From: a bacterium
GTDB taxonomy: Bacteria; Patescibacteriota; Minisyncoccia; RBG-13-40-8-A
Reading direction: 5' to 3'
DNA length: 36,280 bases
NCBI GenBank assembly: GCA_030692145.1
Contig: JAUYCU010000018.1
Coordinates: 1 to 36,280 of the forward strand
In this document: piece after piece, positions 8,418 through 36,280 of the stretch
Position numbering within the stretch: position 1 is the first letter of the stretch
Layout: every line of letters begins with the position of its first letter
Notes under the pieces: generated by a model
The model's database searches: none
What the model was told of the DNA's origin: nothing
What the model saw: only the letters and a program-made list of their open reading frames with translations
Program-made: the position numbers and the translations under genes

Positions 8418-8418
8418 C

Positions 8419-9648: not shown

Positions 9649-9652
9649 AATT

Positions 9653-22128: not shown

Positions 22129-22265
22129 ATTATTTTAATAAGAGGCCCGCACAGAGCGGACCATTAATCATTAAATTTAATCGTATTATTTTAAAATTCA
22201 CTTGTCAAATTTTAATTGAACTTAGCTCTTATTTAGAGATTAGAAATTAGGATTTAGAGATTAGC

Positions 22266-25058
22266 TTACCACGGCCTAATTTCTTTCCATTTACTCGGCA
22301 GCGGCAAACTGACAATCACTTGCCTGGTAATTGAACATTGCGAACCGAATGAATCGGTGACTTGTAGGATGACGTCTTTGGTGCCGCTTGTCGTAAATTG
22401 AGTAATTAAATTTTGTTGTGTTGATGTTGCCGGGTTTCCATCGGTGAATGTCCAATTCCAGTTGGTGCAGGGGGTTGAATTTCCGCTAATATCATAGCAG
22501 TTTGATGAATCCGTGAAGATGGTGCTTTCTCCGGGGTTGGGACTTATTGGTGACCAGGTAAAGTTACAGGCAGGTGAACGGTGGGTGGGAGCATTGAAGG
22601 CAGTGCCGTTTACCCAACCGGAATCAAGGCCATTAATATCATACACTCTTACTCTCCAATTATATATTCGGTTATACGAAAGATAATCGGCTTGAGGGTT
22701 GAGCAATACTATTGCTGCCTGATTGTTGGTTGTGGGACTGGGATTAGACAGGCCGGAATATGTTCTGTTTATTTCAGGTGATGGGAATGTGGCTCCGCTG
22801 TCATCAACCTGAATATTGAATTCCCTTTCCGTATCTCCGTCTGTATCCGAATATATCCAGGAGAAGAAATATGCCGGGGAAGTGGAGCAGAAGTCAGGAA
22901 TGCTTATATTTAAATTAGTTACTGTAGGTTTAAAATTAAAAGGAACAACAACCATTCCATCGGTGGAATAATCAGACCAATTTCCCGCATTGTCTTTTGC
23001 TCTGTATCGAAATTGATATTCGTAACCTCTTACGCCAAGATATATAAAATCATCAATTGTCGAACCGTTGTTGGGTAAATCCGTATCAACCCAAGCTCCC
23101 CAGGTTGGACTATCAATTAATCTCCAGCCAACATCAACATCTCCTTCGGCAATGCCGCTCCGATCATCGTCCTCGCTAAGACCCACTGTAATATTTGTAT
23201 CGCCGGAATTTCCGTTCTCTTGATCGATTACCACTATGGGCAAAACCGTGTCCTTGGTGAATGACCAGTATTCGGACCATGAGCTGGTTGCTCCAGGGCT
23301 ATCTTCGGCATAGGCGCGCCAGATATATGTGTCGTCAAGAATTCCTGCTATTGGTCCCCAGGAACTGGTTCCGGAAGTAGTGACATAGCCTCCGTTTCCG
23401 GTTCCGAATCCGGTAACTTCGAAGTTTGCCCTGATTGTTTGTCCGATATCGCTATCGGTGACGGTGGCCGAGAACGTAGGATCGGGAGCTGCTGCATTAA
23501 CATACGAACCATTGGCAGGACTAATCAAAGTAGGAACATCAGGAGCATGATTGACGTTTGCCGTCACTGTATCTGAATATTCACTGACAGTGAAATTTAT
23601 TAACGGACCCTGCTCGTAGGCCGTTGTTTTGAATCTCGTATCATATACCCTGTATCTTAATTCTAAGGTGTAGCTTCCCACGGCAAGATTAGGTGTAAAA
23701 AAATCAATTTGATAAATATTCACGCAAACACCCTCAACACAACCATCGGCACAGAAACCGGAAGTTTGTGTCCATTGGCTCCCCTGTGTCAGATTGGTCC
23801 AAACTCCTCCGTTAATACGATATGATATACCGTCACCAACTGTATTATAGATTCTGAAAGCGTAGTTTTGTTCGAGAAGACTACATTCTCCTATTTCCGT
23901 TTCATAAGTACCTGTGTAATAATAAGCAGTACTACATTTGAGTGTAAAATTTGTACTTCCGGTAAGAGCTGCTATGTTCCTATTCCCAGAAAGAGGTACC
24001 GAATCAGCATCAATCCATGAACCATTATCTGGATCTGCGTAAGAAGAGCAAGAATCAACGCCGCTTGTAAACCATTGCAATTCTACGTCAGTTCCGGGAT
24101 TAATCGTAATCGGCCCGTTGGAAAATGGATTAGTGGTACCTCCTTGCCGAATCAAAATATCAACCGGATTATTGGAAATCTGCAAAGTAAAAGTTGTTGC
24201 GCGCGTGGTTAAACCTGTTGTTCCGGAAACAGTAATCGTGTACGTACCATCTGACGAACCATTGGGATTAATCGTCATTGTCGTAGTGCAGGTGCTAATA
24301 CTTGGCGTACATGATGATGGAGAAAAAGTAGCTGTTGGGCCAGAGGGTGATGATACTGCGGAAAAACTCACTGCCGATGCCGTGCCTACGGTTTTCGTAA
24401 CCGTGATTGTCGAATTTATTGAAGCACCCATGCGCGATATTCCGGAATTCGGACTTGGAGAAAGCGTAAAATCAAACCCAGCAGAAGGAATACTGTATTC
24501 AAACCCCTCGTAACCATTCTGATCAATATCAAAATATTGCCTTAAATAAAGTACATGCGTACCAGGATTTAACTGCGTTCCCGTAAGCGGAATCCGGGTA
24601 AGCCCAGTATCGAACATATAAGCAGCAGGCGTAATCCTTGTGCTTTCGACCGAGCATATTGGTGAAGCCGGACTTGCAGGTGACAATTGAAACCACTGAC
24701 CTGGTGGAATAAATGTGTTCCCATATTCCAAATTAATCCATCCCGTATAGCTGGTATTATCGATTTGGTATTGAAGATACCCAAGCGGGTCTGCAACCCC
24801 CCATATGCCATTGGGAATTTCTACGGTTCCGCAATGCTGCGTACATGTTCCATTTTCTAGTGTTCCTGCAATAATAAGTTCGTTCCCGGAAACAGAGATT
24901 GAAAGCATATCAACATCGAACAACATCCAATCAGGGCCGCAAAGTATAGCTTGAGCAGTTTTTGGTAAAATAAAAAACAACGCGCCAAAAACAAAACAAA
25001 GCAAAATTAATTTACGCATGTTCCAATAATTATCCTTTTTGAAATAAGGGTTGAACAT
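22266..25058 (-). CDS. Large secreted surface protein with Ig/FN3-like repeats and a C-terminal PKD domain
   Basis: 930 aa. Signal peptide MRKLILLCFVFGALFFILPKTAQA (alternative start at 25019). C-terminal PKD-like segment: CNFTWSPISPNPGESTIFTDSS...WNWTFTDGNPATS...GTKDVILQVTDSFGSQCSITRQVIV. Confidence 0.75.
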   Translation of the reverse strand: MFNPYFKKDNYWNMRKLILLCFVFGALFFILPKTAQAILCGPDWMLFDVDMLSISVSGNELIIAGTLENGTCTQHCGTVEIPNGIWGVADPLGYLQYQIDNTSYTGWINLEYGNTFIPPGQWFQLSPASPASPICSVESTRITPAAYMFDTGLTRIPLTGTQLNPGTHVLYLRQYFDIDQNGYEGFEYSIPSAGFDFTLSPSPNSGISRMGASINSTITVTKTVGTASAVSFSAVSSPSGPTATFSPSSCTPSISTCTTTMTINPNGSSDGTYTITVSGTTGLTTRATTFTLQISNNPVDILIRQGGTTNPFSNGPITINPGTDVELQWFTSGVDSCSSYADPDNGSWIDADSVPLSGNRNIAALTGSTNFTLKCSTAYYYTGTYETEIGECSLLEQNYAFRIYNTVGDGISYRINGGVWTNLTQGSQWTQTSGFCADGCVEGVCVNIYQIDFFTPNLAVGSYTLELRYRVYDTRFKTTAYEQGPLINFTVSEYSDTVTANVNHAPDVPTLISPANGSYVNAAAPDPTFSATVTDSDIGQTIRANFEVTGFGTGNGGYVTTSGTSSWGPIAGILDDTYIWRAYAEDSPGATSSWSEYWSFTKDTVLPIVVIDQENGNSGDTNITVGLSEDDDRSGIAEGDVDVGWRLIDSPTWGAWVDTDLPNNGSTIDDFIYLGVRGYEYQFRYRAKDNAGNWSDYSTDGMVVVPFNFKPTVTNLNISIPDFCSTSPAYFFSWIYSDTDGDTEREFNIQVDDSGATFPSPEINRTYSGLSNPSPTTNNQAAIVLLNPQADYLSYNRIYNWRVRVYDINGLDSGWVNGTAFNAPTHRSPACNFTWSPISPNPGESTIFTDSSNCYDISGNSTPCTNWNWTFTDGNPATSTQQNLITQFTTSGTKDVILQVTDSFGSQCSITRQVIVSLPLPSKWKEIRPW

Positions 25059-25101
25059 ATGTTTGTGTTTTATTTCTTTATCAACGTTGTCTATATTTTA
25101 A

Positions 25102-25110
25102 TTATAACAA
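25102..25110 (-). promoter_or_regulatory. Extended -10 (TGTTATAAT) upstream of the 930-aa gene
   Basis: Reverse strand reads TTTTGTTATAAT, about 44 nt upstream of the ATG at 25058. Confidence 0.35.
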
Positions 25111-25121
25111 AATTTCAGAAT

Positions 25122-25155
25122 AAAAAAAGAGGAGTCTCTGTTGAGAGCTCCTCTG
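25122..25155 (-). terminator. Intrinsic terminator after the lipoprotein gene
   Basis: Reverse strand AGAGGAGCTCTC-AACA-GAGACTCCTCT followed by TTTTTTTAT. An 11-bp stem with one bulge. Confidence 0.6.
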
Positions 25156-25161
25156 TGTCCG

Positions 25162-25698
25162 TTATCGATTGGAACTTTGTGCATTGGAAATGATTGTTCC
25201 TTCTGCGGTTAGCTGGAGAAAAGCTGCTTTTGCCTTTGGTCCGGGATTAGGATTGGTTGGTAGATTATATGGCCGGATATCTTTAAGCTCTGCTGTGAAC
25301 CCTGTTTCTTTTACGGTGACAATAAAAATGTCACCCACCATGCTCGAGCTTACATCCGAGCCGTCATATCTGCCCCCATCATAACATTGAAAATAATAAT
25401 CGGCACGAACCTTAACACCGGCAAGCTCACCATTAAAATGAAATGGTGGATCGTCAATTTTATTCAAGGGAATGCTCGAACGACTTCCCGACAAATCAAA
25501 CAAGGAAAGGAAGGGTGTCAATGTGCTTGTCTCCGGATTGAGAAACGTTCTGATGTACTGAACTTGCAAGGTGTAAGTTTTTTCCGGCGGCGGTGGTGGT
25601 GGCGGTGGATCGGGACCGGTAATGGTACCGCAGACGGAAACCAACAAAGAAACGACCAAAAGCGCGAAAACAATCAAAACGGTCTTTAAGCTTTTCAT
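25162..25698 (-). CDS. Putative lipoprotein with a poly-proline linker
   Basis: 178 aa. Signal peptide ends in LLVSVC (lipobox-like), followed by GPDPPPPPPPPEK. Strong RBS: AAGGAGG, 5-nt spacer, ATG. Confidence 0.65.
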   Translation of the reverse strand: MKSLKTVLIVFALLVVSLLVSVCGTITGPDPPPPPPPPEKTYTLQVQYIRTFLNPETSTLTPFLSLFDLSGSRSSIPLNKIDDPPFHFNGELAGVKVRADYYFQCYDGGRYDGSDVSSSMVGDIFIVTVKETGFTAELKDIRPYNLPTNPNPGPKAKAAFLQLTAEGTIISNAQSSNR

Positions 25699-25707
25699 TC
25701 TATCCTC

Positions 25708-25783
25708 CTTCGTCCGCCGTAGCTTTCTTGTCCGCCGAAGCCTCGGCGAAGGTGGAATGCGTAGGCGGGCTTAGCCTTCGGAT
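25708..25783. repeat. Cluster of GC-rich palindromic elements in the lipoprotein 5' leader
   Basis: cttcgtccgccgtagc, then cttgtccgccgaagcctcggcgaaggtgg, then gcgtaggcgggcttagccttcgg. Same family as 5966-5996 and 26249-26295. Confidence 0.6.
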
Positions 25784-25945
25784 TTTACAGGATAAACCTG
25801 CGTATATTGATAAGCGCAAAGCGCAATAAAAAGAACTGAATCTAATCGAATCTATATTTAAAGTGCCATAAAGAACAACTTATTTCTATCAATTTCGTTC
25901 CGACCTTGCGTCGGAATTAATTTCCATCTATTTCTATATATCTTT

Positions 25946-25974
25946 GTTATACTCTTATTTCTATAATTTGTCAA
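25946..25974 (-). promoter_or_regulatory. Sigma70-type promoter (TTGACA, 17-nt spacer, TATAAC) about 250 nt upstream of the lipoprotein ATG
   Basis: Reverse strand TTGACA (25974-25969), 17-nt spacer, TATAAC (25951-25946). This implies a long structured leader. Confidence 0.45.
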
Positions 25975-26011
25975 ATTTTTCAGCGCTACCTATGTATCTC
26001 GACTTATTCAA

Positions 26012-28560: not shown

Positions 28561-28590
28561 AAAAAGGAGATATCAGATATCTCCTTTTTT
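28561..28590. terminator. Palindromic intrinsic terminator (bidirectional)
   Basis: AAAAA-GGAGATAT-CAG-ATATCTCC-TTTTTT. It overlaps the TAA stop of the 116-aa gene. Confidence 0.6.
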
Positions 28591-28939
28591 ACATCTGGCT
28601 TTCTGCTCGGAATTTTTTCTCGACCGTCCTCAAAACCACCAAATCATGATAATTCTTGCTTTTTTCGATTTTCTCCAATCCCTGTAATGTCTTTGTCTGT
28701 AATTCTCTTCCGAGTTTCCGAGCCTTTAAAAGAGCGCAAAGAGCTAAAAACCTGATTGAAACCCTCGAATCACCGAGACAATTGCACAGAACCTCTTCGG
28801 CATTCCCATTGTTACCGACCAAAAAAGCATTGGCAAACTGCTCAACCGCATTACATGCCGTTTCGTCTTCCTCAAAGGAATGACTTGACTGATCACTGTG
28901 CTCTTTTAAAAAAACTTTCAAAAACTCTAATTTTTCCAT
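28589..28939 (-). CDS. Hypothetical protein (helical, HEAT-like segment)
   Basis: 116-aa ORF. Strong RBS (AAGGAGGGAAAA then ATG) and a terminator at its stop. Confidence 0.55.
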   Translation of the reverse strand: MEKLEFLKVFLKEHSDQSSHSFEEDETACNAVEQFANAFLVGNNGNAEEVLCNCLGDSRVSIRFLALCALLKARKLGRELQTKTLQGLEKIEKSKNYHDLVVLRTVEKKFRAESQM

Positions 28940-29052
28940 TTTTCCCTCCTTGATTCTATTCTACCAAAAAAGAAATCAATTCTGAAATAAAAAGCGTGTA
29001 TTAGATAAGTATTAAGTGTTATATCTTAGATTTGAAATTAAACATAAAAACC

Positions 29053-29081
29053 TTGACAGAATTTAGGTTTTGGTGTATGCT
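29053..29081 (+). promoter_or_regulatory. Promoter of the high-GC cassette (TTGACA, 17-nt spacer, TATGCT)
   Basis: TTGACA at 29053-29058 and TATGCT at 29076-29081. AAGGAG at 29139-29144 lies 8 nt before the ATG. Confidence 0.5.
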
Positions 29082-29152
29082 TATGGTGTACCTTTAAAAA
29101 GGTATGCAATTCCGTAAGGAATCTGCACTTTACAAAAAAAGGAGCAACCACA

Positions 29153-29812
29153 ATGAGTGGAACAGCCTTTCCGGGATGGTATGTGGAGTTTCAAGCCGGC
29201 GTGCTACGGCAACTGCCTCGGCCCGATGAGCTTGGACAAGAAGTCGGTGAGAAATGGACTAATGGCCAGGGAGCTTTGAAAAAAGCGTTGGCCACGGCCC
29301 TACTCCCGAAAGGATCGGAGAAGTTCGGTCTGTTCAAGGACCTCGGCATCACCACGGTGCCGGACGACTACGTCCACAGCACCCGGCTGGCCTCGTTCGA
29401 AAAAGAGAACCGTAAAAAGTTCTACTACTGGAACGACGCCACCACCGACAAGAACTTCGCCAAGGCCACGACGAAACTCGTGCCCGGCCGAAAACTCCAT
29501 GTGAAGGTTTTCAAGCAGATCGTTTCCGGCACGACCACGTCCGAGGAGTGTCTGGCGTTTCTCAAGAGCCAGAACGCAGTTCTGACCGGAGCCCAGGGCG
29601 CCTCGCTCGTCTTCGAACAGAAGCGAGAAGATCTACCAAAAGGCTACTGGTATCTTTCCTTCGACGAGAAGGAAGCTCTCTGGAAAGATGCCGTCGGCTA
29701 CCACAGGGTGCCGTACGTGGATCGGTACTCGGACGGAGACTGGTACTTCGACCTCGGATACTTCGAGTACGTCTGGCGCGACCACTATTGCCTGCTCTGC
29801 TTCTGCGACTAA
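29153..29812 (+). CDS. Hypothetical protein in a compositionally foreign (high-GC) cassette
   Basis: 219-aa ORF. Hand counts of 60-nt lines give 47-60% G+C, against 32% at 28201-28260. Codons are GC3-rich. It has its own promoter, SD and terminator, and I recognise no family. Confidence 0.7.
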   Translation: MSGTAFPGWYVEFQAGVLRQLPRPDELGQEVGEKWTNGQGALKKALATALLPKGSEKFGLFKDLGITTVPDDYVHSTRLASFEKENRKKFYYWNDATTDKNFAKATTKLVPGRKLHVKVFKQIVSGTTTSEECLAFLKSQNAVLTGAQGASLVFEQKREDLPKGYWYLSFDEKEALWKDAVGYHRVPYVDRYSDGDWYFDLGYFEYVWRDHYCLLCFCD

Positions 29813-29869
29813 TTTAGCGCTTAGGTACTTAGTCGCTCATCTCCAGTTCTTTGGTTCTTTGAACATCGG

Positions 29870-29901
29870 GGAGCCCTTGCCTTGCAAGGGCTCCATTTTT
29901 T
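29870..29901 (+). terminator. Intrinsic terminator of the high-GC cassette
   Basis: GGAGCCCTTGC-CTT-GCAAGGGCTCC followed by ATTTTTTAT. An 11-bp stem. Confidence 0.75.
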
Positions 29902-30081
29902 ATACTTAGACATACCGACTACAAAATTATGCAAAATATATAGCTGTGTAAAAACAAAAACAGCGACCGAAAAAGTCGTTGTTTTTTTTGTTTACGATTT
30001 TATGCACTTGGGTCGCTACTCATTCGCGATTACTCGTGTCTGCACGATAAAAAATTGTCAATGCGGACATGGACAGAACCT

Positions 30082-30108
30082 CCGCCCGAGGCGGATCCGC
30101 CCGTGCCC
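30082..30108. repeat. GC-rich palindromic element just downstream of the mini-UDG-like gene
   Basis: ccgcc-cgag-gcgg-atcc-gcccg. GGCGGATCCGCC is a perfect 12-nt palindrome. The architecture resembles 20842-20875. Confidence 0.5.
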
Positions 30109-30109
30109 A

Positions 30110-30466
30110 TTATTTTACTTTATATTTCCTTAGTCCGTTTCGCAACTGCAACAAATTTTTTTTATCTCTGCTTGCGGGATGAGGCAAATATTCGCATATT
30201 AAACTATTTTTTATAAGGACCTCTTCTATGTATCTACCTAATGCTACTAACCTATAATCACTTGTGATTAATTTTTTTAGCATTGATATTGTCTTATCGG
30301 AAAGAACCCTTGCATCCTCTTCTTCTTTATTTTTCCATAAATCAAAGAATTCCGGTTTAATATTTAAATCATCTGTAATTTTATGTAAAACTCTCCCAGA
30401 TCTTGTTTTTATATGAAATGGTTCTTTAAAGCCTTTTGGATACCCTCCGATTAAAACTATTTTCAT
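30110..30466 (-). CDS. Small uracil-DNA-glycosylase-superfamily-like protein (tentative)
   Basis: I start it at MKIVLIGGYPKG (ATG at 30466), because the longer track ORF overlaps the tRNA. LIGGYPKGFKEPFHIKTRSGRVL, LVALGRY and YLPHPASR loosely mirror UDG motifs (GExPG..PF.G.sG..L, LG, HPS). At 118 aa it is much shorter than canonical UDGs. Confidence 0.5.
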   Translation of the reverse strand: MKIVLIGGYPKGFKEPFHIKTRSGRVLHKITDDLNIKPEFFDLWKNKEEEDARVLSDKTISMLKKLITSDYRLVALGRYIEEVLIKNSLICEYLPHPASRDKKNLLQLRNGLRKYKVK

Positions 30467-30539: not shown

Positions 30540-30890
30540 TTATTCGTGTCTCAATGCTTCAATCGGGTTTAATCGGGAAGCTTTTCTGGCAGGATAGATG
30601 CCGAAAACCAAACCGATAATCGTTGCCACGCCAAAAGCCAAAACAACCGCGCCAAAAGGAATGCTGAATGCCCAGTTTATGCTTAATACTTTACTTAAAA
30701 TAACGGAAGTTGCCAAAGAAAAAGAAATTCCGCCAATAAATCCGATAATTCCTCCGAAAAGAGTCAGGGTCACGGATTCAATCAAAAATTGATTCATAAT
30801 ATCTTTGTTTCTCGCACCAACTGCTTTTCTTAAACCGATTTCCCGCGTTCTTTCCGTAACCGAAACCAGCATAATATTCATAATGATTAC
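30540..30890 (-). pseudogene. 5'-truncated FtsX/MacB-type ABC permease (C-terminal ~115 codons only)
   Basis: [24 protein letters not shown]...TM helices...[20 protein letters not shown] is the conserved C-terminal third of ~400-aa MacB-like permeases. An in-frame stop lies 6 codons upstream of the internal Met, and no N-terminal part is nearby. Confidence 0.75.
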
Positions 30891-30966: not shown

Positions 30967-31221
30967 TTAAAGATATCTAAGGAAAAGTACGATTTTTTCC
31001 GGATTGTCGCATTCTTTTGATGGTTTATGCGTTCCTATTTTGTGTAGAAAATCATCAATATCTCTGATGAGTTGCAGACTTGCGGGGTCGGGTTCTTTAT
31101 CTTCACTAATGCGCGCCGAAATGGTTAATTTGTCGATTTCAATCCGCAATAAGACAGGCGCGAAATCTCCGTATTTTTCCGTTTTCAAAAACAGTTTTTC
31201 TTCGAATTTTTCTTCCGGCAT
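30967..31221 (-). CDS. Hypothetical acidic 84-aa protein
   Basis: ORF with RBS (AAGGAGAGGAAA then ATG). Transcribed divergently from the SET gene, with a terminator downstream. Confidence 0.5.
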   Translation of the reverse strand: MPEEKFEEKLFLKTEKYGDFAPVLLRIEIDKLTISARISEDKEPDPASLQLIRDIDDFLHKIGTHKPSKECDNPEKIVLFLRYL

Positions 31222-31290
31222 TTTCCTCTCCTTTTTATTGTTTCAAGGTGCAGAAAAAACATAGCAGTAAATGAGGGAATTGTCAATAAA

Positions 31291-31803
31291 ATGATTGACA
31301 AAATAATGATTAAGCGCCATATTGTTATCAGTCCTTTCGAGGAGGTGGAGTTGAATAAAAAACAAATACTGGACCAAAAGAAACAATTACTGAGACAGAT
31401 GAGAAAACACGTTTATTGCGGGTTAATGCCTTCAAAAATTTCCGGAGTTGGCGTATTTACAATCAGAGACATTCCGGCTGGAATTGATCCTTTTCAAGAA
31501 CCCGAAGACATAAAATGGATTCCATTCAGCAAAAAGGAGTTAACAAAGATTCATCCAAACGTATTGCAGATGATTAGAGAACTGTATGTATTTAGTGATG
31601 GAGCTTACTGGATTCCAGTACAATGCATACAGACCTTTTGTATTGTTCAGTTTTTAAACCATTCCAAAAACCCCAACCTTACGATTGACAAAGACGGCGA
31701 GATAATCGTGACGAAAAGAAAAATTAAGGAAGGAGAAGAACTCACAGTCAATTATCGATCATACGACGACGAAGCAGAAGAAAAGATAAAACAAAAGAAC
31801 TGA
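31291..31803 (+). CDS. SET-domain protein (putative protein lysine methyltransferase)
   Basis: 170 aa. GVGVFTIRDIPAGI (N-SET GxG), FLNHSKNPNL (NHxCxPN-like) and IKEGEELTVNY (ELxxxY). Confidence 0.75.
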   Translation: MIDKIMIKRHIVISPFEEVELNKKQILDQKKQLLRQMRKHVYCGLMPSKISGVGVFTIRDIPAGIDPFQEPEDIKWIPFSKKELTKIHPNVLQMIRELYVFSDGAYWIPVQCIQTFCIVQFLNHSKNPNLTIDKDGEIIVTKRKIKEGEELTVNYRSYDDEAEEKIKQKN

Positions 31804-31827
31804 CAGAAACCCTGTCAGCTCTTTTTT
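31800..31827. terminator. Hairpin terminator overlapping the SET stop codon
   Basis: CTGACAG-AAACC-CTGTCAG followed by CTCTTTTTT. The TGA stop lies inside the left arm. A T-rich run on the opposite strand also suits the RmlD-like gene. Confidence 0.6.
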
Positions 31828-31847
31828 AATCGGGCTGCCCGGACTTG
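31812..31847. repeat. 36-nt direct repeat, orphan copy (tRNA-Pro 3' fragment + flank; attR-like)
   Basis: CTGTCAGCTCTTTTTTAATCGGGCTGCCCGGACTTG, identical to 34414-34449. Confidence 0.85.
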
Positions 31848-31884
31848 TCCCTCAAACGGGATCCCGAGGTGATTTTCTTTATGG

Positions 31885-32700
31885 CTATTTTATAATTTTT
31901 GAGAATAGATCCGTATTAAGTGAGGTGTCTGGTGCAATATTTAAATTTTTACCAGCCAAAGAATCTGGCTTGATAAGATTTGTATCCATCCCCATTTCTT
32001 TAATAAGTTCTCTGCTGAATTCGTAAATATTTCTCCTTTTACCGGCTACGTGAATTATTCCATTAAAATCTTTTTCAATCAGCCGCCAAATTGCCCCAGC
32101 TAAGTCAGCTACCTGAATTGGCGAACGATACATATCTCCAAATCGTTGAACCGTCTCGCTCTGTTTAATCTGATTTAATAACTTAGTTGTTCTTTTGTCC
32201 CAGTCGGCGGCGCTTTTACCGTATATATAACTTGTTCGAATGATAATAAAATTCTTTAAATTTTCCCTAATTACGGTTTCGGCAACCAATTTTGCCCTGC
32301 CGTAATCCGTTATTGGATTGGCTTCATCCTCCTCCTTGTAGTTTCCTTTTGTTCCATCAAATACCGCATCCGAAGAAATATAGATCAATTTTGCACCTAT
32401 TAGTTTAATTGATTCAACTAATTGTTCCATGGCTTCTTTCGCTCTTTTCGGATTTTCATCATCTGGATCAATTCGGGCTACATGGATTATAGTGTTGGGC
32501 TTTATTTTATTCAAATTTTTTTCTAGAGACTTGTAATCTAAGAGGTTGATTTTTATCGGCTTAAAACCACCAGCTTCAATTGGCTTATCCCTATAAGCTA
32601 ACCAAAGCTCGATTTTTTCTGGAACAAGCTCAACTAGAACAGAGCCCAAAAAGCCTGTGCTGCCCAATATTAATACTCTACGGTTATTTATTGTGTTCAT
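31885..32700 (-). CDS. RmlD-like NAD(P)-dependent reductase/epimerase (dTDP-4-dehydrorhamnose reductase family)
   Basis: 271 aa. Rossmann motif VLILGSTGFLGS, then IYISSDAVFDGTKGNYKEEDEANPITDYGRAKLVAE with the catalytic YxxxK. Confidence 0.8.
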   Translation of the reverse strand: MNTINNRRVLILGSTGFLGSVLVELVPEKIELWLAYRDKPIEAGGFKPIKINLLDYKSLEKNLNKIKPNTIIHVARIDPDDENPKRAKEAMEQLVESIKLIGAKLIYISSDAVFDGTKGNYKEEDEANPITDYGRAKLVAETVIRENLKNFIIIRTSYIYGKSAADWDKRTTKLLNQIKQSETVQRFGDMYRSPIQVADLAGAIWRLIEKDFNGIIHVAGKRRNIYEFSRELIKEMGMDTNLIKPDSLAGKNLNIAPDTSLNTDLFSKIIK

Positions 32701-32732
32701 AAGCTTAATCTTATTATATCAGAAAAAGAGGT

Positions 32733-32766
32733 ATAAAAAGAGGGGGATCCGGTGAATGGACCCCCC
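32733..32766 (-). terminator. Intrinsic terminator after the radical SAM gene
   Basis: Reverse strand GGGGGGTCC-ATTCACC-GGATCCCCC followed by TCTTTTTAT. Confidence 0.55.
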
Positions 32767-32770
32767 ATAA

Positions 32771-34126
32771 CTATGTTTTGAGACGAATGTCAGCATGAAC
32801 AGCTTCATGCTTTTTATTGTATTCTTCAACAAACTGTGAAGCTTCATGCATTAGGCTCAAGAATCTCGCCTGATTCATGTCTTTTACGAACGCCCGGTCC
32901 ATTGATTGGTTGGCGGCCCAACTCCAGTCGGTGGTATTTTCGTCTAGTAAACCGCATTCCACAACTTCCTTGTACATGGGCGTTCCAGGTAACGGAGAGA
33001 ACCGCGCTAAAGTCACAAAAGGAGGTTCTATTTCCCGAATCAAGGCTAGGGTCTCTTGGATGCTCTCCTCTGTCTCAACGGGTACGCCGAGCATAAAGTA
33101 GGCTGACCAGACAATACCGTTACGATGCAGCATTTCGGCCGACTCGCGGATTTGAGTTAGCGTGATGTTCTTATTCATATAGTGTAGGATTCTTGGACTA
33201 CCCGATTCTATTCCGATACGGATCCGATCACATCCCGCTGCTTTCATCAATTCAAGCAATGCGTCATTGAAATGACCCACGCGCGTAAGACATTCCCACT
33301 TTACCCGAAGCTGTCTTTCGATTAATAGCTGGCAAATGCCTGCAACTCGCCTTTGATTCAATGTGAAGGTGCCGTTGCGAAAAGAGAAATATTCCGTTCC
33401 GTAGCGATCTTTGCGAAGGACGATTTCCTGTATAACTCGACTGACCGAATGATACCTAACCCTACATCCCCAAACTACGGAAAGAGCGCAGAATCCGCAA
33501 TTAAACGGACAACCTCTTGCTGAAATCAGTAAACCCATGTCAGTGGGACGATAGGAGTCGGCGTGCAAGCAATCTAGTGCTGGCAACGGTATAGTGTCCA
33601 ACGCCTCGATTAGTTGGCTTTTAATAACCGCTGGTGCCTGTTTTCCTTCGCTAATCTGTTGTACTAGGGTAGAAATGCTCTGTTCGCCCTCGCCGCAAAC
33701 CACATAGTCAACATTTTTGCCTAAAGCATCCTGAGGTCTGACGGTAACATGTTCTCCGCCAGCGACGACAATAATGTCACTACGATGTTGTTTGGTGAGT
33801 TGTGCTAGCTTGAGCGCAGAACCAACCTTAGGTGTCAGAAAGGAGATACCAACGATGTCCGGCATAAACTTCTCTAGAATATTAAGATATTCCTGCCAGA
33901 TGTAGTGAGCGTTATTCTGCAAAGCTTCAAGATAGTGACGATGAGAAAACGCAGTTGCCTTCATGGAAAGACTGTAACATTTTGGGTCGTGTTCTGCGTC
34001 GTAGATCAGAACCTCATGTCCCGCCTGCCTGAGAACGGCTGCCAGATAGGTCAGTCCCAGAGGAAAATAGAATCGATAATATCCCATAAACCTCTGGAAC
34101 GGCGGATCAATTAGAAGGATTTTCAT
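32771..34126 (-). CDS. B12-binding-domain radical SAM enzyme
   Basis: 451 aa. N-terminal cobalamin-binding-like Rossmann part (MKILLIDPP...DIVGISFLTP...IIVVAGGEHVT), then the CxxxCxxC cluster motif ARGCPFNCGFCA and the rSAM core (RIRIGIESGS). Confidence 0.85.
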   Translation of the reverse strand: MKILLIDPPFQRFMGYYRFYFPLGLTYLAAVLRQAGHEVLIYDAEHDPKCYSLSMKATAFSHRHYLEALQNNAHYIWQEYLNILEKFMPDIVGISFLTPKVGSALKLAQLTKQHRSDIIVVAGGEHVTVRPQDALGKNVDYVVCGEGEQSISTLVQQISEGKQAPAVIKSQLIEALDTIPLPALDCLHADSYRPTDMGLLISARGCPFNCGFCALSVVWGCRVRYHSVSRVIQEIVLRKDRYGTEYFSFRNGTFTLNQRRVAGICQLLIERQLRVKWECLTRVGHFNDALLELMKAAGCDRIRIGIESGSPRILHYMNKNITLTQIRESAEMLHRNGIVWSAYFMLGVPVETEESIQETLALIREIEPPFVTLARFSPLPGTPMYKEVVECGLLDENTTDWSWAANQSMDRAFVKDMNQARFLSLMHEASQFVEEYNKKHEAVHADIRLKT

Positions 34127-34130
34127 GATT

Positions 34131-34241
34131 CTATTTACCTCCTGTAGTCAATTTGTATAGTAATCCCATACTACTATAGGTGAACCCGGCCGAGGTTATT
34201 TTAAACAAACCCGGCCCATCAATCATGCAGATGTTGCTCAT
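34131..34241 (-). CDS. Unannotated 36-codon ORF upstream of, and coupled to, the radical SAM gene (candidate precursor peptide)
   Basis: MSNICMIDGPGLFKITSAGFTYSSMGLLYKLTTGGK. GAAGGAG (34254-34248) sits 6 nt upstream of the ATG, which is the first start after an in-frame stop. The TAG lies 4 nt before the rSAM ATG, and the rSAM GGAGG lies within the last codons. Confidence 0.45.
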   Translation of the reverse strand: MSNICMIDGPGLFKITSAGFTYSSMGLLYKLTTGGK

Positions 34242-34309
34242 TTTTGACTCCTTCTCTAGGGTTTTTCTCGTTTTAAAAGATCAAATTTAACATACTATCC
34301 TAACAATAT

Positions 34310-34338
34310 ACCTTACAACTTAATAAAGATAAAGTCAA
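34310..34338 (-). promoter_or_regulatory. Possible promoter of the peptide/rSAM unit (TTGACT, 17-nt spacer, TAAGGT)
   Basis: Reverse strand TTGACT (34338-34333) and TAAGGT (34315-34310). A TGTGT..ACACA inverted repeat lies just upstream at 34357-34370. Confidence 0.3.
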
Positions 34339-34413
34339 GTGCAGTATTTTTATGTATGTGTTTATACACAAACCGTGGACAAATAAAAACAGCTAAAATA
34401 GCTAACAGGGTTT

Positions 34414-34449
34414 CTGTCAGCTCTTTTTTAATCGGGCTGCCCGGACTTG
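34414..34449. repeat. 36-nt direct repeat, copy overlapping the 3' end of tRNA-Pro(CGG) (attL-like)
   Basis: Identical to 31812-31847. Positions 34432-34449 are the last 18 nt of the tRNA. Confidence 0.85.
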
Positions 34450-34502
34450 AACCGGGGCTAAATCCTCCCGAAGGACTCGTGCTACCACTACACTACAGCC
34501 CG
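34432..34502 (-). tRNA. tRNA-Pro (anticodon CGG)
   Basis: Reverse strand CGGGCTG-TA-GTGT-AGTGGTA-GCAC-G-AGTCC-TTCGGGA-GGATT-TAGC-CCCGG-TTCAAGT-CCGGG-CAGCCCG-A, 71 nt. C1:G72 pair, no encoded CCA. Confidence 0.9.
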
Positions 34503-34506
34503 TTAA

Positions 34507-35010
34507 TCAGTTTTTAATACAAACCAATGTGTTTTTATCACAATTCTTTAAAATTTCCAGCAAATCCTTTTTATTGAACGCAACACAACCCGCGGTTGGA
34601 GAATAATTCTTTCTCGCTATATGCATGAATATCGCACTGCCCTTTCCCGAAATAACTGGATTATCATTATATCCCAACACGACAACAATATCATAAATTT
34701 CGTCATCGCGCCACAGTTTTTCATGGCTCGCGCCATACGGCAATTTTATTTGCTGGTTGTAATTTTTGTCATTGACATCATCACACCATGCGTCATTTTC
34801 CTGAATTTCTTCAACCAATAAATCTGTTTGCGGTTTTTCAATTTTGTCTTTACGATAAAGAACTTTTCTCATTTCAAAACACCCTGCTGGCGTTTTTCCA
34901 TCTCCTTCTTTTTTATTATTCGTAATTCCGTTTTTCCCGATTGCGCATTGAAATTCCTTTCCTCGAAAAACCGCCTTTCCGGAAGAATAAATATCAATCG
35001 CGTTTTTCAT
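34507..35010 (-). CDS. L,D-transpeptidase catalytic-domain protein (YkuD-like, COG3786 type)
   Basis: 167 aa. KKEGDGKTPAGCF and the active-site region GSAIFMHIARKNYSPTAGCVAF (H...GC). Confidence 0.75.
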   Translation of the reverse strand: MKNAIDIYSSGKAVFRGKEFQCAIGKNGITNNKKEGDGKTPAGCFEMRKVLYRKDKIEKPQTDLLVEEIQENDAWCDDVNDKNYNQQIKLPYGASHEKLWRDDEIYDIVVVLGYNDNPVISGKGSAIFMHIARKNYSPTAGCVAFNKKDLLEILKNCDKNTLVCIKN

Positions 35011-35031
35011 TTTTCATTTTTAGTTTTTAAT

Positions 35032-36280
35032 TTACTTTATCCAATGCTTTTCGCGGATTTTTAAATCTTCTTCTTCTTTTTTTTCTTCGATTTTCCCTTT
35101 GGCTAGTTCGCGCAGGTTTTCCAAATCTTCTTTATCCAGTTCCTTAACCCGTTTTTCCAGTTTTTTCTTATCGTTCTTTTTCGGTTCTTCGATAATTTCC
35201 GATAGCAACACGTCCAAAATAGCGCCGACTTTCGGACCTGGTTCGATTTTTAAAAGTTTCATGATTTCTGTGCCGTTGATTTTCAGCATTTTTGCCGAAA
35301 TCGGATCTTTGGAAACTTTTTCAATCATATATTCGATAGTACGCAATCTGTACGGCTTTTCTTTTGGCCTGCCCATACCCAACCTGTCGGCAACTCTCAA
35401 ATTAATCAAATCGGGAATATTTTCCTTGCCTACCCTGGCAATCAATCTTCTTGCGCCTGCTTCGGTCAACCTTTCCGGGTCGGATACAAACATATGGTTT
35501 CTCACCAATAAAACCACTTTGTCGATAAATTTATTGGGAAATTTCAGTCTTTGCAAAATCCGCGCGGTAAATTTCGCGCCCACGTAATCGTGATTGTAAA
35601 AAGTGGAATCAGGGCCTTCGCCTTGTTTGGTTTCCGGCTTTCCGATGTCGTGAAATAATGCGGCAAACCTGATTTCCAAAGCGAAATCTTTTTCCGCAGT
35701 AACTTTCAGAGAACGCAGGGAATGCTCGTAAATATCGTAAATGTGATGCTTGTTCTGGCTCACTCCAACTCCTTTTTCCAATTCCGGCAAAATATATTTC
35801 AATAAATTGGTTTTTTGCAGTAAATCAATGCCTTCGGCTGCTTGCGTGGATTCGATAATTTTAATCATTTCGTCTCTGATTCTTTCTTTGGAAATCGCCT
35901 GAATCCATCCCGCGTTTTTTTGAATTGCCTTAAATGTTTTTGCCTCAATTTCCCAGCCCAAGGCTGGTCCGCCTTGGGCGGAAAGAGTAGTAGCAAAACG
36001 CGCTGCTCTTAGCATTCTTAAAGCGTCTTCATCAAATCTTTCTTCGGCTTTGCCCACGGTTTTGATAATTTTATTTTTTAAATCTCTCTGGCCGTCGAAT
36101 GGGTCGATAATTTTCGCAATCCCTTCGACTTCGCTCAGGGCAAGGGCATTCACCGTAAAGTCTCTGCGCGCCAAATCTTCCTCGATATTTTTCGCGTATT
36201 TGATTTCGTCGGGATGGCGTTTGTCGGAATATTTTCCGTCTTTACGATAAGTGGTAATTTCGATTTCTTTCAAAGTTTCG
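35032..36280 (-). CDS. cca: CCA-adding tRNA nucleotidyltransferase / poly(A) polymerase family with HD domain; N-terminus outside the window
   Basis: The frame is open to the right edge, and the track start is only an in-frame TTG. EITTYRKDGKYSDKRHPDEIKY, RDFTVNALA and HD motif ALFHDIGKP. Confidence 0.85.
   Translation of the reverse strand, partial: ETLKEIEITTYRKDGKYSDKRHPDEIKYAKNIEEDLARRDFTVNALALSEVEGIAKIIDPFDGQRDLKNKIIKTVGKAEERFDEDALRMLRAARFATTLSAQGGPALGWEIEAKTFKAIQKNAGWIQAISKERIRDEMIKIIESTQAAEGIDLLQKTNLLKYILPELEKGVGVSQNKHHIYDIYEHSLRSLKVTAEKDFALEIRFAALFHDIGKPETKQGEGPDSTFYNHDYVGAKFTARILQRLKFPNKFIDKVVLLVRNHMFVSDPERLTEAGARRLIARVGKENIPDLINLRVADRLGMGRPKEKPYRLRTIEYMIEKVSKDPISAKMLKINGTEIMKLLKIEPGPKVGAILDVLLSEIIEEPKKNDKKKLEKRVKELDKEDLENLRELAKGKIEEKKEEEDLKIREKHWIK
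35953..35983. repeat. GC-rich twin-hairpin element, in-frame copy inside cca
   Basis: ccagcccaaggctggtccgccttgggcggaa matches 25/31 nt with 810-840. It encodes SAQGGPALGWE. Confidence 0.6.

Follow-up and report, generated by a model that had tools for sequence, protein, structure and literature searches.

The 36,280-nt stretch of DNA analysed here (the window) probably carries a small genomic islet that arose by site-specific recombination at the T-loop and 3′ end of tRNA-Pro(CGG), lacks an integrase and now persists as a fixed remnant. The integration reading as a whole is largely supported by an exact direct repeat, an intact tRNA and relatives with an empty site, which together bear out the earlier description of this locus, made from the sequence alone, as an att-like scar of insertion into the tRNA 3′ end. 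The scar is of an ordinary kind, but it is unusually small, and a second tRNA shows such a scar around the same cargo.

A direct repeat at the tRNA-Pro 3′ end

The 36-nt sequence CTGTCAGCTCTTTTTTAATCGGGCTGCCCGGACTTG occurs exactly twice in the window, both times on the + strand with 2,566 nt between the copies (31848-34413), as the sequence-only reading had reported; no further copies were found at up to three mismatches, and shuffled sequences are expected to yield none (Table 1). The right copy comprises positions C56 to A73 of tRNA-Pro(CGG) (18 nt) and 18 nt of downstream DNA, and tRNA placement by ARAGORN and Rfam agrees with that earlier assignment. The left copy is, as proposed, an orphan. 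A 5′ half of the tRNA next to 31847, which would have been the sign of a decayed tandem tRNA duplication, was not found, the local alignment score of 12 being equalled by 28-38% of controls. Leftward, the repeat extends by 19 nt into a 55-nt repeat (31793-31847 and 34395-34449; 47 of 55 positions identical), with identity falling sharply from 36/36 in the core to 11/19 in the extension. This longer repeat spans an entire palindromic terminator, whose 5-nt loop is reverse-complemented between the copies (AAACC versus GGTTT) and whose outer arm differs at three positions. The insertion thus amounts to 31848-34394 plus a 55-nt duplication, only 36 nt of which are identical.

Table 1 Features of the islet and its flanks (window coordinates)
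Feature	Position	Strand	Evidence or remark
SET-domain gene, left flank (host DNA)	31291-31803	+	Pfam SET, E 1.8e-10
Native palindromic two-way terminator	31793-31825	.	Terminator-like on both strands
Left 36-nt identity block, attR-like	31812-31847	+	Exact repeat; L005 synteny stops exactly at 31847
Displaced tRNA-Pro 3′ fragment (C56-A73)	31830-31847	-	Within left 36-nt block
Inserted DNA, cargo operon and upstream region, 2,547 nt	31848-34394	-	Missing from closest relatives
RmlD-like short-chain reductase, 271 aa, cargo gene 2	31885-32700	-	Pfam RmlD_sub_bind, E 1.5e-40
Strong terminator-like hairpin between radical SAM and reductase genes	32742-32766	-	9-pair stem, 7 G-C, then T run
B12-binding-domain radical SAM enzyme, 451 aa, cargo gene 1	32771-34126	-	Pfam B12-binding and Radical_SAM
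36-codon remnant of UDP-glucose/GDP-mannose dehydrogenase-family gene (ugd)	34131-34241	-	Matches to L002 ugd
Former ugd upstream (promoter/RBS) region	34242-34327	-	Homologous to L002
Hybrid hairpin after tRNA-Pro	34395-34427	-	Terminator-like on - strand only
Right 36-nt identity block, attL-like	34414-34449	+	Exact repeat; overlaps intact tRNA 3′ end
Intact tRNA-Pro(CGG), integration target	34432-34502	-	ARAGORN; Rfam tRNA 62.1 bits versus threshold 29
YkuD (L,D-transpeptidase-fold) gene, right flank (host DNA)	34507-35010	-	Pfam YkuD, E 2.7e-13

Relatives preserve the empty site

The source bacterium is one of the ultra-small Patescibacteria from groundwater. In its closest relatives, three independent assemblies of a different species (L005, L006 and L008; dS 0.5-1.8), the SET gene, a single palindromic two-way terminator and tRNA-Pro are adjacent, which is the empty site sought and the ancestral layout that had been predicted, with tRNA-Pro converging on the SET-gene terminator. 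These relatives encode a CCA enzyme that is 93-94% identical in amino acid sequence (tblastn and global alignment) and a YkuD protein that is 83-88% identical (83% in L005); the SET gene is orthologous to L005 10001-10432, with 72% amino acid identity across 143 aligned residues. That these relatives are a different species counts against the integration reading. By blastn, synteny between the window and L005 ends exactly at 31847 and restarts at 34395, and nothing matches between. Synteny from the CCA enzyme to tRNA-Pro(CGG) is kept in most of 80 Patescibacteria loci, none of which has the cargo genes near CCA/tRNA-Pro. All eight differences that separate the window lineage from the orthologous L005 sequence are present in both repeat copies, so the duplication is younger than the split from L005. 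Deletion between direct repeats would yield exactly the empty site seen, and other deletions are known in this lineage (ugd and a macB operon); however, an ancestral filled arrangement emptied in the relatives is very improbable in the face of the shared substitutions and the 80 cargo-free loci, and integration would still be required to create the repeats.

The two hairpins carry a further record of the event. The left hairpin, orthologous to that of L005 with compensatory changes, has folding energies of -14.4 kcal/mol on the + strand and -19.7 on the - strand (z -6.2 to -6.7); it serves the SET gene on the + strand and originally also served tRNA-Pro on the - strand, and the cargo operon now ends there. 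The hairpin after tRNA-Pro is a hybrid: its inner arm, inside the 36-mer, is host-type, and its loop and outer arm are L005-type with the loop flipped. It matches the reverse-complemented L005 hairpin at 31/33 positions and is complementary to the left hairpin at 30/33. With folding energies of -13.4 kcal/mol on the - strand (one G.U) and -8.3 on the + strand, it is predicted to be a terminator in the tRNA direction only. Its outer arm is identical to that of the relatives at 14 of 14 positions, which together with the abrupt end of repeat identity argues for a foreign attP half over self-duplication and suggests that the donor of the islet was probably a close relative. The flipped loop counts against this reading, as simple integration gives no explanation for it.

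Under the favoured reading, a circular donor DNA would have carried an attP identical to the host over 36 nt, a stretch that begins at C56 of the tRNA and reaches to the inner arm of the terminator beyond it. A crossover inside this block would place the cargo between tRNA and terminator and rebuild the tRNA, with half of the tRNA-proximal hairpin derived from the element, and would shift the native 3′ fragment and native terminator 2.6 kb away, next to SET.

A decayed operon as cargo

The cargo is a decayed, sugar-nucleotide-type operon of ugd, B12-domain radical SAM and RmlD-like reductase genes. The sequence-only reading had described a peptide/radical SAM unit together with an RmlD-like reductase; the Pfam match confirms the reductase, and the peptide part falls. 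The 36-aa open reading frame has no match in Pfam or NCBIfam and consists of the first 6 and last ~30 ugd codons joined in frame. Window positions 34327-34220 match L002 224-330, a stretch that runs from upstream of ugd into its first codons (109 nt at 74% identity by blastn), and positions 34230-34177 match L002 1520-1582, the ugd 3′ end. In translation the remnant (MSNICM, then IDGPGLF..KITSAGFTY) aligns to L002 Ugd (MNNICM...IFDGPGLFEPAKITAAGFTY). The frame is thus no RiPP precursor peptide, and the radical SAM enzyme belongs to the sugar-nucleotide-type operon. The junction sits in a CTGCAT microhomology: ugd, formerly the first gene of the operon, has since been removed by an in-frame internal microhomology deletion, making decay visible within the cargo. 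Just beyond the ugd upstream stretch lies TTGACT (34338-34333), only promoter-like and unlisted by the scan.

The other two genes remain intact, and purifying selection has acted on both. Every NCBIfam match of the radical SAM enzyme is under cut-off (NF033070, 96 bits versus a cut-off of 500), and among solved structures AprD4 (6fd2, E 4e-23) comes nearest to it; compared with its homologue on contig L001 it is 91% identical in amino acid sequence, with dN/dS 0.09 and dS 0.51. The reductase likewise scores under the cut-off for TIGR01214 (138 versus 224 bits), has 2ggs as its nearest solved structure, and is 83% identical to its L001 homologue (dN/dS 0.19). GC content of the radical SAM gene is 44-47% in all hosts, and its GC3 of 0.47 is slightly over the host range of 0.33-0.46. 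Base composition therefore leaves no foreign mark on the cargo, which counts against the integration reading.

Integrase-less islets recur at tRNA genes

The sequence-only reading held that no recombinase lies between the repeats or elsewhere in the window, and our searches agree: a Pfam scan of 56 open reading frames (among them almost all those of at least 90 aa, the exceptions lying inside scanned genes) and tblastn of the window with two tyrosine recombinases were both negative. Only 86 nt and 37 nt at the two ends of the cargo are unassigned, which leaves no remains of an integrase that might have been lost. The missing integrase counts against an integrase-mediated event. Most likely the recombinase was of tyrosine-integrase type, and its gene either has been lost or was never situated between the repeats, leaving the islet as the fixed remnant now seen.

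The radical SAM and reductase pair occurs in at least six genomic contexts. In the Shapirobacteria-like contigs L108-L110, an architecture assembled independently in three samples, the pair lies between tRNA-Val(GAC) and a displaced 22-nt 3′ fragment of that tRNA. The same site is empty in related contigs L112-L114 and holds a different two-gene cargo in L115 and L116; neither the L108 islet (2,432 nt) nor the L115 islet (2,474 nt) contains an integrase gene or fragment. In L108 it is the orphan fragment that retains the native T-loop base, and the intact tRNA has a variant there, consistent with a copy on the tRNA side that came from the element. Across 303 tRNAs, an unbiased scan with 14-mers recovered five 3′-terminal orphan blocks, three of which start at C56 (the window, L075 and L088), and displaced blocks starting in the T-loop do so at C56 three times and at G53 once. 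L075 and L088 carry non-coding mini-inserts bounded by tRNA tails (tandem 151-nt units and 312 nt, respectively). On L001, near-identical cargo adjoins two tyrosine recombinase genes.

Because the islet at tRNA-Val is independent, has the same cargo and also lacks an integrase, mobilization in trans is worth considering. A minimal cassette that is still active and bounded by att sites, moved by a recombinase with T-loop specificity whose gene lies elsewhere in the genome or on another element in the cell, would be comparable to CIMEs or to elements that borrow a recombinase from their host. Such a cassette would account for three small islets without a recombinase (window, L108 and L115), independent integration of one two-gene cargo at two different tRNAs, a tRNA-Val site seen empty and with either of two cargos, the mini-inserts starting at C56, a perfect 36/36 repeat, the L001 recombinases, and an inner unitig depth of 37.2 against 32.4 and 33.9 in the flanks. 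We nevertheless consider it unlikely. The depth excess is small and may come from GC content; neither an excision product nor an empty-site read nor a recombinase came to light; near the L001 cargo the contig shows neither a tRNA nor a repeat; the cargo is oriented oppositely relative to the tRNA in the window and in L108, which speaks against a fixed cassette-plus-att unit; and recent spread is hard to square with the dS of 0.5 that separates it from the closest copy of the cargo. Absence of integrases is itself biased, because ±10 kb was fetched around each tRNA and islands big enough to hold an integrase escape detection.

Those depths also bear on assembly. The k=31 contig graph breaks at both repeats, where a 2.6-kb piece from a separate circle or another genome, threaded in through the repeat, would be indistinguishable from a true insertion (A-R-B-R-C versus A-R-C plus a B-R circle). 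Such an artefact has only the slimmest likelihood: the three pieces are near-equal in depth in the single run containing them, ordinary reads span 36 nt, the piece lacks a replication gene, and L108-L110 show the same architecture.

RecA-type Campbell insertion of a circularized fragment from a related cell, already carrying a tRNA-Pro/terminator piece beside the operon and using the 36-55 nt of homology, which such insertion duplicates, would need no integrase, in line with its absence, and would fit both the relatives'-type hairpin arm, which points to donor DNA from a related genome, and the type IV pilus cluster in the window, a kind used for DNA uptake. It is improbable all the same. The tRNA tail beside the cargo would need an earlier event, again an integration; the homology is 22 nt (L108) and 36 nt, at or under the length that efficient RecA recombination usually needs; and clustering of block starts in the T-loop is unexpected for random fragment ends.

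Comparison with known systems

Site-specific integration, the preferred reading, places the islet among tRNA/tmRNA genomic islands (PMC4383910, PMC1762012), in which a regenerated tDNA with a displaced fragment is the island signature (the Islander principle, PMC4383910) and the T-loop is a known sublocation for integrases (bioRxiv 10.1101/2020.11.02.365908; PMC1762012). Shared features are an intact regenerated tRNA and a displaced 3′ fragment in direct orientation at the two ends, an identity block running from the T-loop past the 3′ end, an empty site in relatives, and different cargos at one tRNA (tRNA-Val) among related genomes. Unlike tyrosine-integrase islands, the window islet has no integrase gene and is just 2.5 kb, with two intact genes, and its block runs 18 nt past the tRNA into half a terminator hairpin. 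Characterized T-loop integrases such as that of mycobacteriophage Ms6 ('class II' sites) share the whole T-arm (PMC1762012), whereas the block here, from C56, covers just 5/7 T-loop bases and no 5′ T-stem, which counts against a T-loop integrase.

CIMEs (cis-mobilizable elements), remnants of decayed ICEs or IMEs in which attL and attR survive and the integration and transfer genes are gone (PMC5704250), resemble the islet in their intact att-like repeats, missing recombination and transfer genes, and internal decay. The islet has no tandem partner element, and the likeness is one of structure, with no descent from an ICE or IME implied. To our knowledge, Patescibacteria are not established hosts of ICE/IME-type conjugative elements. 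A report on Dehalococcoides (PMC3146451) describes a horizontally acquired island, with site-specific mobilization, at the single-copy ssrA (tmRNA) gene. By target type alone the picture is similar: in this streamlined environmental bacterium, too, the 3′ end of one small-RNA gene serves repeatedly as a hot spot for insertion, and tandem islands are bounded by direct repeats of the gene tail.

If AprD4/AprD3 is a guide, the radical SAM enzyme and reductase may deoxygenate or otherwise remodel a sugar. In that system a radical SAM diol dehydratase (AprD4) and an NAD(P)H reductase (AprD3) together deoxygenate an aminoglycoside sugar. The similarity is distant and lies in the constant pairing, in at least six contexts, of a radical SAM enzyme whose N terminus has a B12-like domain with a short-chain reductase, here RmlD-like; unlike in AprD4/AprD3, the presence of ugd in the operon suggests a nucleotide sugar as substrate.

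An exact repeat at tRNA-Pro(CGG)

The 36-nt sequence reported in the sequence-only reading occurs exactly twice in the window, in direct orientation, with no further copy at up to three mismatches and none expected by chance. As that reading proposed, the right copy is the tail of tRNA-Pro(CGG), from C56 to A73, followed by 18 nt of downstream sequence, and the left copy is an orphan that lacks a 5′ half. On the 5′ side of the orphan the best local alignment to the remaining tRNA covers 6 nt, with a score equalled in 28-38% of shuffled or genomic controls, and we rejected a decayed tandem tRNA because no remnant of the 5′ half is present. Rfam found no RNA family besides the tRNA across 31200-35100. 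The statement that no recombinase lies in the window also holds: none was found by Pfam scans of all cargo ORFs and of 56 window ORFs (almost all of those of at least 90 aa, the few unscanned lying inside scanned genes), and a six-frame tblastn with two tyrosine recombinases returned no match below E 0.5. The repeats are further neighboured by genes for a YkuD-fold protein and the CCA-adding enzyme, and the window, a piece of a groundwater bacterium's chromosome, encodes a type IV pilus cluster, RNase J and RNase Y, ClpP, trigger factor and NusA. Its best-named genome relatives are Candidatus Portnoybacteria/Paceibacteria MAGs, with CCA-adding enzymes at most 80-89% identical.

Positions of the repeat copies and genes at the islet
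Feature	Position	Strand	Remark
SET-domain gene	31291-31803	+	flanks repeat
36-mer, left copy	31812-31847		orphan
RmlD-like reductase gene	31885-32700	-	between repeats
B12-binding-domain radical SAM (rSAM) enzyme gene	32771-34126	-	between repeats
36-codon ORF	34131-34241	-	between repeats
36-mer, right copy	34414-34449		tRNA tail and flank
tRNA-Pro(CGG)	34432-34502	-	Rfam full-length tRNA match, 62 bits

Relatives retain the empty site

By protein search, the SET gene product has its closest relatives, at 71-73% identity, on three independent assemblies, L005 and L006 (ENA) and L008 (JGI), which are syntenic with the window from ClpP through the CCA enzyme (CCA enzyme 93-94%, YkuD 83-88% and NusA 90% identical) and represent another species (dS 0.5-1.8). 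In all three, a perfect palindrome with 14-bp arms, AAAATAGCTAACAG-AAACC-CTGTTAGCTATTTT, follows the SET stop codon, and the 3′ end of tRNA-Pro(CGG) lies four bases past it, which is the ancestral arrangement that had been predicted, with the tRNA converging on the SET-gene terminator. By blastn, window 31295-31847 corresponds to L005 9945-10476 and window 34395-34502 to L005 10422-10529, and 31848-34394 has no counterpart in L005, placing the synteny breakpoints at 31847 and 34395.

The CCA-adding enzyme, which matures tRNA 3′ ends, and tRNA-Pro(CGG) form a strikingly conserved pair: the tRNA follows the enzyme gene immediately in most of 80 species-representative Patescibacteria loci. None of these 80 loci carries the cargo genes within 10 kb, and with the retained pairing this makes the filled state the derived one; an ancestral filled arrangement that was lost in the relatives is less likely. 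Both copies of the 36-mer carry all eight lineage substitutions relative to L005, indicating that the duplication is younger than the split from the L005-type relatives.

Several other differences accompany this synteny. Between tRNA-Pro and YkuD, 4 nt apart in the window, the relatives L005 (10544-10966), L006 and L008 carry a divergent second SET-domain gene that the window lacks. Window 28570-30112 (1.5 kb) stands where L005 has 455 nt and includes a 219-aa ORF lacking a Pfam match (29153-29812, plus strand) with 56% GC and a GC3 of 0.72 versus 0.33-0.46 in its neighbours; it looks like another, compositionally foreign insertion. At 30540-30885 a MacB/FtsX permease is reduced to its last 113 codons, and relative to L005 about 3.3 kb is deleted, comprising most of macB, an ABC ATPase and a membrane-fusion protein; the two alignments share 5 nt (30881-30885), which suggests a microhomology junction. 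L005 also has no counterpart of the 3.8 kb between NusA and a UPF0102 gene (22209-26008), which code for a 930-aa PKD-domain protein and contain a 178-aa ORF.

Some of the conserved tRNA-Pro loci hold fragments of their own. In two Portnoybacteria MAGs (L017 1229-1267 and L019 2455-2489), the 3′ half (35-39 nt) of another tRNA-Pro-like gene, from anticodon to 3′ end and with an acceptor strand that mismatches the neighbouring tRNA, lies about 20 nt downstream of intact tRNA-Pro(CGG), and may be an older scar at the same target. In L064 (827-2787), the named-genome MAG with the most similar CCA enzyme (88-89%), tRNA-Pro(CGG) is followed by RNase J and then by two tRNA-Pro 3′-half-like pieces (2695-2715 and 2770-2787, 54 nt apart) that ARAGORN does not call. 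Weak orphan matches in L064 and two further loci, L021 and L072, were not accepted as scars.

The junctions fit a crossover between att sites

The direct repeat extends beyond the 36-mer to 55 nt (31793-31847 and 34395-34449; 47/55 identical), longer than the sequence-only reading saw. The added 19 nt span the palindromic terminator's outer arm and its loop; the 5-nt loop is reverse-complemented (AAACC versus GGTTT), and the arm has three differences. On the orphan side (left), the hairpin is orthologous to the L005 terminator and both its arms carry compensatory changes; its RNA folds well in both directions (-14.4 and -19.7 kcal/mol). On the tRNA side (right), the hairpin combines a host-type inner arm, which lies within the 36-mer, with a loop and outer arm identical to L005-type sequence in flipped orientation. 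This hybrid has 31/33 matches to the reverse complement of the L005 hairpin and 30/33 complementarity to the left hairpin. In the tRNA direction its RNA forms a 9-bp stem with one G.U pair (-13.4 kcal/mol) followed by a U-rich stretch; the opposite direction folds poorly (-8.3 kcal/mol).

Repeat identity is 36/36 and then abruptly 11/19, which is not the pattern of self-duplication followed by drift. The junctions fit recombination of a host attB with an attP that had taken its outer half from a related genome and, because this hairpin type is confined to this locus and this small clade among the window and fetched loci, a close relative was the probable donor. Flip-flop of the hairpin may have turned the loop, or the donor site may already have had it in this form. 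Integration sublocations within tRNA genes have been described (bioRxiv 10.1101/2020.11.02.365908), including the T-loop used by phage Ms6 (PMC1762012), and the identity block here starts at such a characteristic position, T-loop base C56, with the caveat that only 5 of the 7 loop bases are common to both copies.

We read the segment as a scar of site-specific integration in a tRNA gene because a regenerated tRNA is paired with a displaced fragment, relatives retain the empty site, alternative cargos occupy a single tRNA gene elsewhere and the blocks start in the T-loop. This bears out the essentials of the integration idea first raised from the sequence, including its ancestral site. General recombination through short homology is a less likely origin. 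So is misassembly of the segment; in the only public run with the sequence, k=31 contigs break at the 36-mer, with depths of 32.4 to the left, 37.2 inside and 33.9 to the right.

Other kinds of element were considered and rejected. A transposon or casposon was set aside because the only inverted repeats at the cargo ends are the terminator hairpins and no transposase or Cas1 gene is present, and an integron cassette because the only palindrome is the terminator and there is no IntI, attC structure being judged by eye. The relatives have the palindromic terminator once per site, and it is absent from the rest of the window and loci, which excludes a dispersed repeat. Reverse-transcriptase priming on the tRNA tail was considered only; the fragment has the same sense as the tRNA and starts at C56 rather than after A58, and there is no reverse transcriptase.

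The cargo is an enzyme pair beside a gene remnant

The sequence-only reading described the cargo as a peptide/rSAM unit, and its peptide did not survive comparison with homologous loci. Two parts of ugd, a 441-aa UDP-glucose/GDP-mannose dehydrogenase-family gene on contig L002, align with the window: the upstream region with the first codons at 34327-34220, and the 3′ end at 34230-34177. This two-piece match identifies the 36-aa product (MSNICM-IDGPGLF-KITSAGFTY...) as six residues from the start of Ugd and ~30 from its end, fused in frame at a CTGCAT microhomology, so that the ORF is what a deletion left of ugd and no precursor peptide. In relatives its position is taken by full ugd, by another gene or by nothing. 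A RiPP cluster was rejected accordingly, there being no genuine conserved short precursor gene, as was a RiPP maturase: the rSAM protein scores 153 bits against 750 for ApyD and 80 against 282 for rSAM_ocin_1, and has no SPASM domain.

The two enzyme genes are intact, and dN/dS values of 0.09 (rSAM) and 0.19 (reductase) relative to contig L001, at a dS of ~0.5, indicate that they have evolved under purifying selection. The closest rSAM homologues are 91%, 86% and ~60% identical. On the contigs of these homologues the same reductase always comes next, and the gene upstream of the pair differs: ugd in L002 and L003/L004, two tyrosine recombinase genes and a 52-aa ORF in L001, a SPASM radical SAM gene and a methyltransferase in L090-L092, a GT39/PMT_2 glycosyltransferase in L108-L110 and unrelated genes in L111. 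DNA homology of the window to L001 and L090 is limited to the two genes (34143 to 31873). This adjacency is kept in relatives despite a strong terminator-like hairpin in the window between the rSAM stop and the reductase start (32742-32766, minus strand; 9 pairs, 7 of them G-C, then a T run).

Among solved structures, the rSAM enzyme comes closest to AprD4 and its partner to RmlD-type reductases. These similarities, the constant pairing of the two genes and the sugar genes around them suggest that the pair acts on a nucleotide sugar, as a radical dehydratase with a reductase or as a methylase with a reductase, a role we infer only, because every curated family score for the cargo enzymes falls below its cut-off; the reductase reaches 137.9 bits against 224 for the RmlD equivalog TIGR01214 and is RmlD-like in fold only. 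Base composition was rejected as proof of foreignness: the rSAM gene has 44-47% GC and is richer in GC than its neighbours in every host, which makes high GC a property of the gene itself.

In L001 the two tandem tyrosine-recombinase genes (133-2480), the first encoding 467 aa with a long C-terminal extension past the integrase domain, lie directly upstream of a cargo pair 87.5% identical in DNA to that of the window. We rejected them as the missing integrase, as the 7-kb contig has no tRNA and no flanking repeat and shares only the two cargo genes. Among viral contigs, considered as a vehicle, the best rSAM relative is 32% identical, and an exact DNA scan for the repeat gave 0 matches.

Comparable inserts at other tRNA genes

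An unbiased scan for 14-mers of tRNA genes (303 genes, 1.4 Mb of fetched loci) that recur outside such genes returned five displaced 3′-terminal blocks: in the window, L075, L088, L060 and L027 (tRNA-Ser). The block starts at C56 of the T-loop in the window, L075 and L088, and at G53 in L108. L075, L088 and L060 contain non-coding mini-inserts with a tRNA tail at each boundary. In L075 (20380-20900), tRNA-Arg(TCG) is followed by tandem 151-nt units that each open with its tail from C56 to the 3′ end, two of them full and one more cut off by the end of the stretch read; in L088 (8651-9036) a 19-nt tRNA-Lys tail recurs 312 nt downstream, and in L060 (7824-7995) a 33-nt tRNA-Phe tail recurs 99 nt downstream.

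A stronger parallel to the window comes from L108-L110, Shapirobacteria-like contigs from three samples, in which only the rSAM and reductase pair lies between tRNA-Val(GAC) (9257-9331, minus strand) and a displaced copy of its last 22 nt (6803-6824; 21/22 identical). In relatives L112-L114, whose neighbouring glycosyltransferase is 81% identical, this site is empty and the stop codon of the gene abuts the tRNA 3′ end. In the 75% relatives L115/L116 the same site holds another two-gene cargo (7428-9901), an AAA_15/AAA_21 ATPase and a RloB-domain protein, which we take to resemble an AbiL-type anti-phage system, with only a degenerate tRNA fragment at the far end. The two insertions measure 2,432 and 2,474 nt, and tblastn revealed no recombinase in any of the three locus types. 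In L108 the orphan has the T-loop base of the empty-site relatives and the intact tRNA has a variant, as expected if the element supplied the tRNA-side copy. Relative to the tRNA, the cargo is antisense in L108 but sense in the window, indicating that the two events were independent.

Possible loss of the integrase or action in trans

The integrases known to target tRNA genes are of the tyrosine family only (PMC4383910). An islet lacking one may be a decayed remnant whose integrase was lost, and the decay of ugd and other deletions in the lineage speak for such a loss, as does a sampling that could detect only islets shorter than ~10 kb. It may instead belong to a cassette system mobilised by an integrase in trans, to which we give a modest chance: the three islets are very similar in size, none has an integrase, two share their cargo, and the repeat in the window is perfect. 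No integrase remnants were found by tblastn in the window or at the tRNA-Val locus types, no related integrase-bearing element at a tRNA was recovered from the fetched loci, and neither the tRNA 3′ half nor the element-side junction had an exact DNA match in metagenome contigs (0 for each).

A bolder and, in our judgement, improbable extension is that Patescibacteria maintain a class of integrase-less, ~2.5-kb two-gene cassettes, exchanged at tRNA T-loops by an in-trans recombinase that cuts next to C56. Its members would be the window islet, the L108 islet, the AbiL-like cargo of L115 and the non-coding mini-inserts of L075 and L088, and tRNA genes would work somewhat like integron platforms in tiny genomes. 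If true, trans mobilisation of integrase-less islets would give minimal genomes a new way to swap small cargos.

Comparison with known elements

The mobile elements and gene-flow routes of Patescibacteria are poorly described in the literature, and the islet documents, to the base, a gain of genes at a tRNA locus by a Candidate Phyla Radiation (Patescibacteria) bacterium. Its rSAM/reductase module moves between very different Patescibacteria and adjoins glycosylation genes, making it a candidate for surface-sugar variation. The ugd remnant corrects a tempting misannotation: a short ORF beside a radical SAM gene need not be a RiPP precursor.

Among known systems, the islet shares with Islander-type tRNA islands an intact tRNA and a displaced fragment of the same gene that bound the element in direct orientation, and an empty site in related genomes, where SET, terminator and tRNA-Pro are adjacent; it differs in having no tyrosine integrase inside the element. 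It agrees with a CIME, an element that still has attL and attR but no genes for integration or transfer: the repeats of the islet are perfect, and no recombinase or transfer genes were found in the cargo. The islet adds a very small case to a well-known class of elements that has been little described in this phylum.
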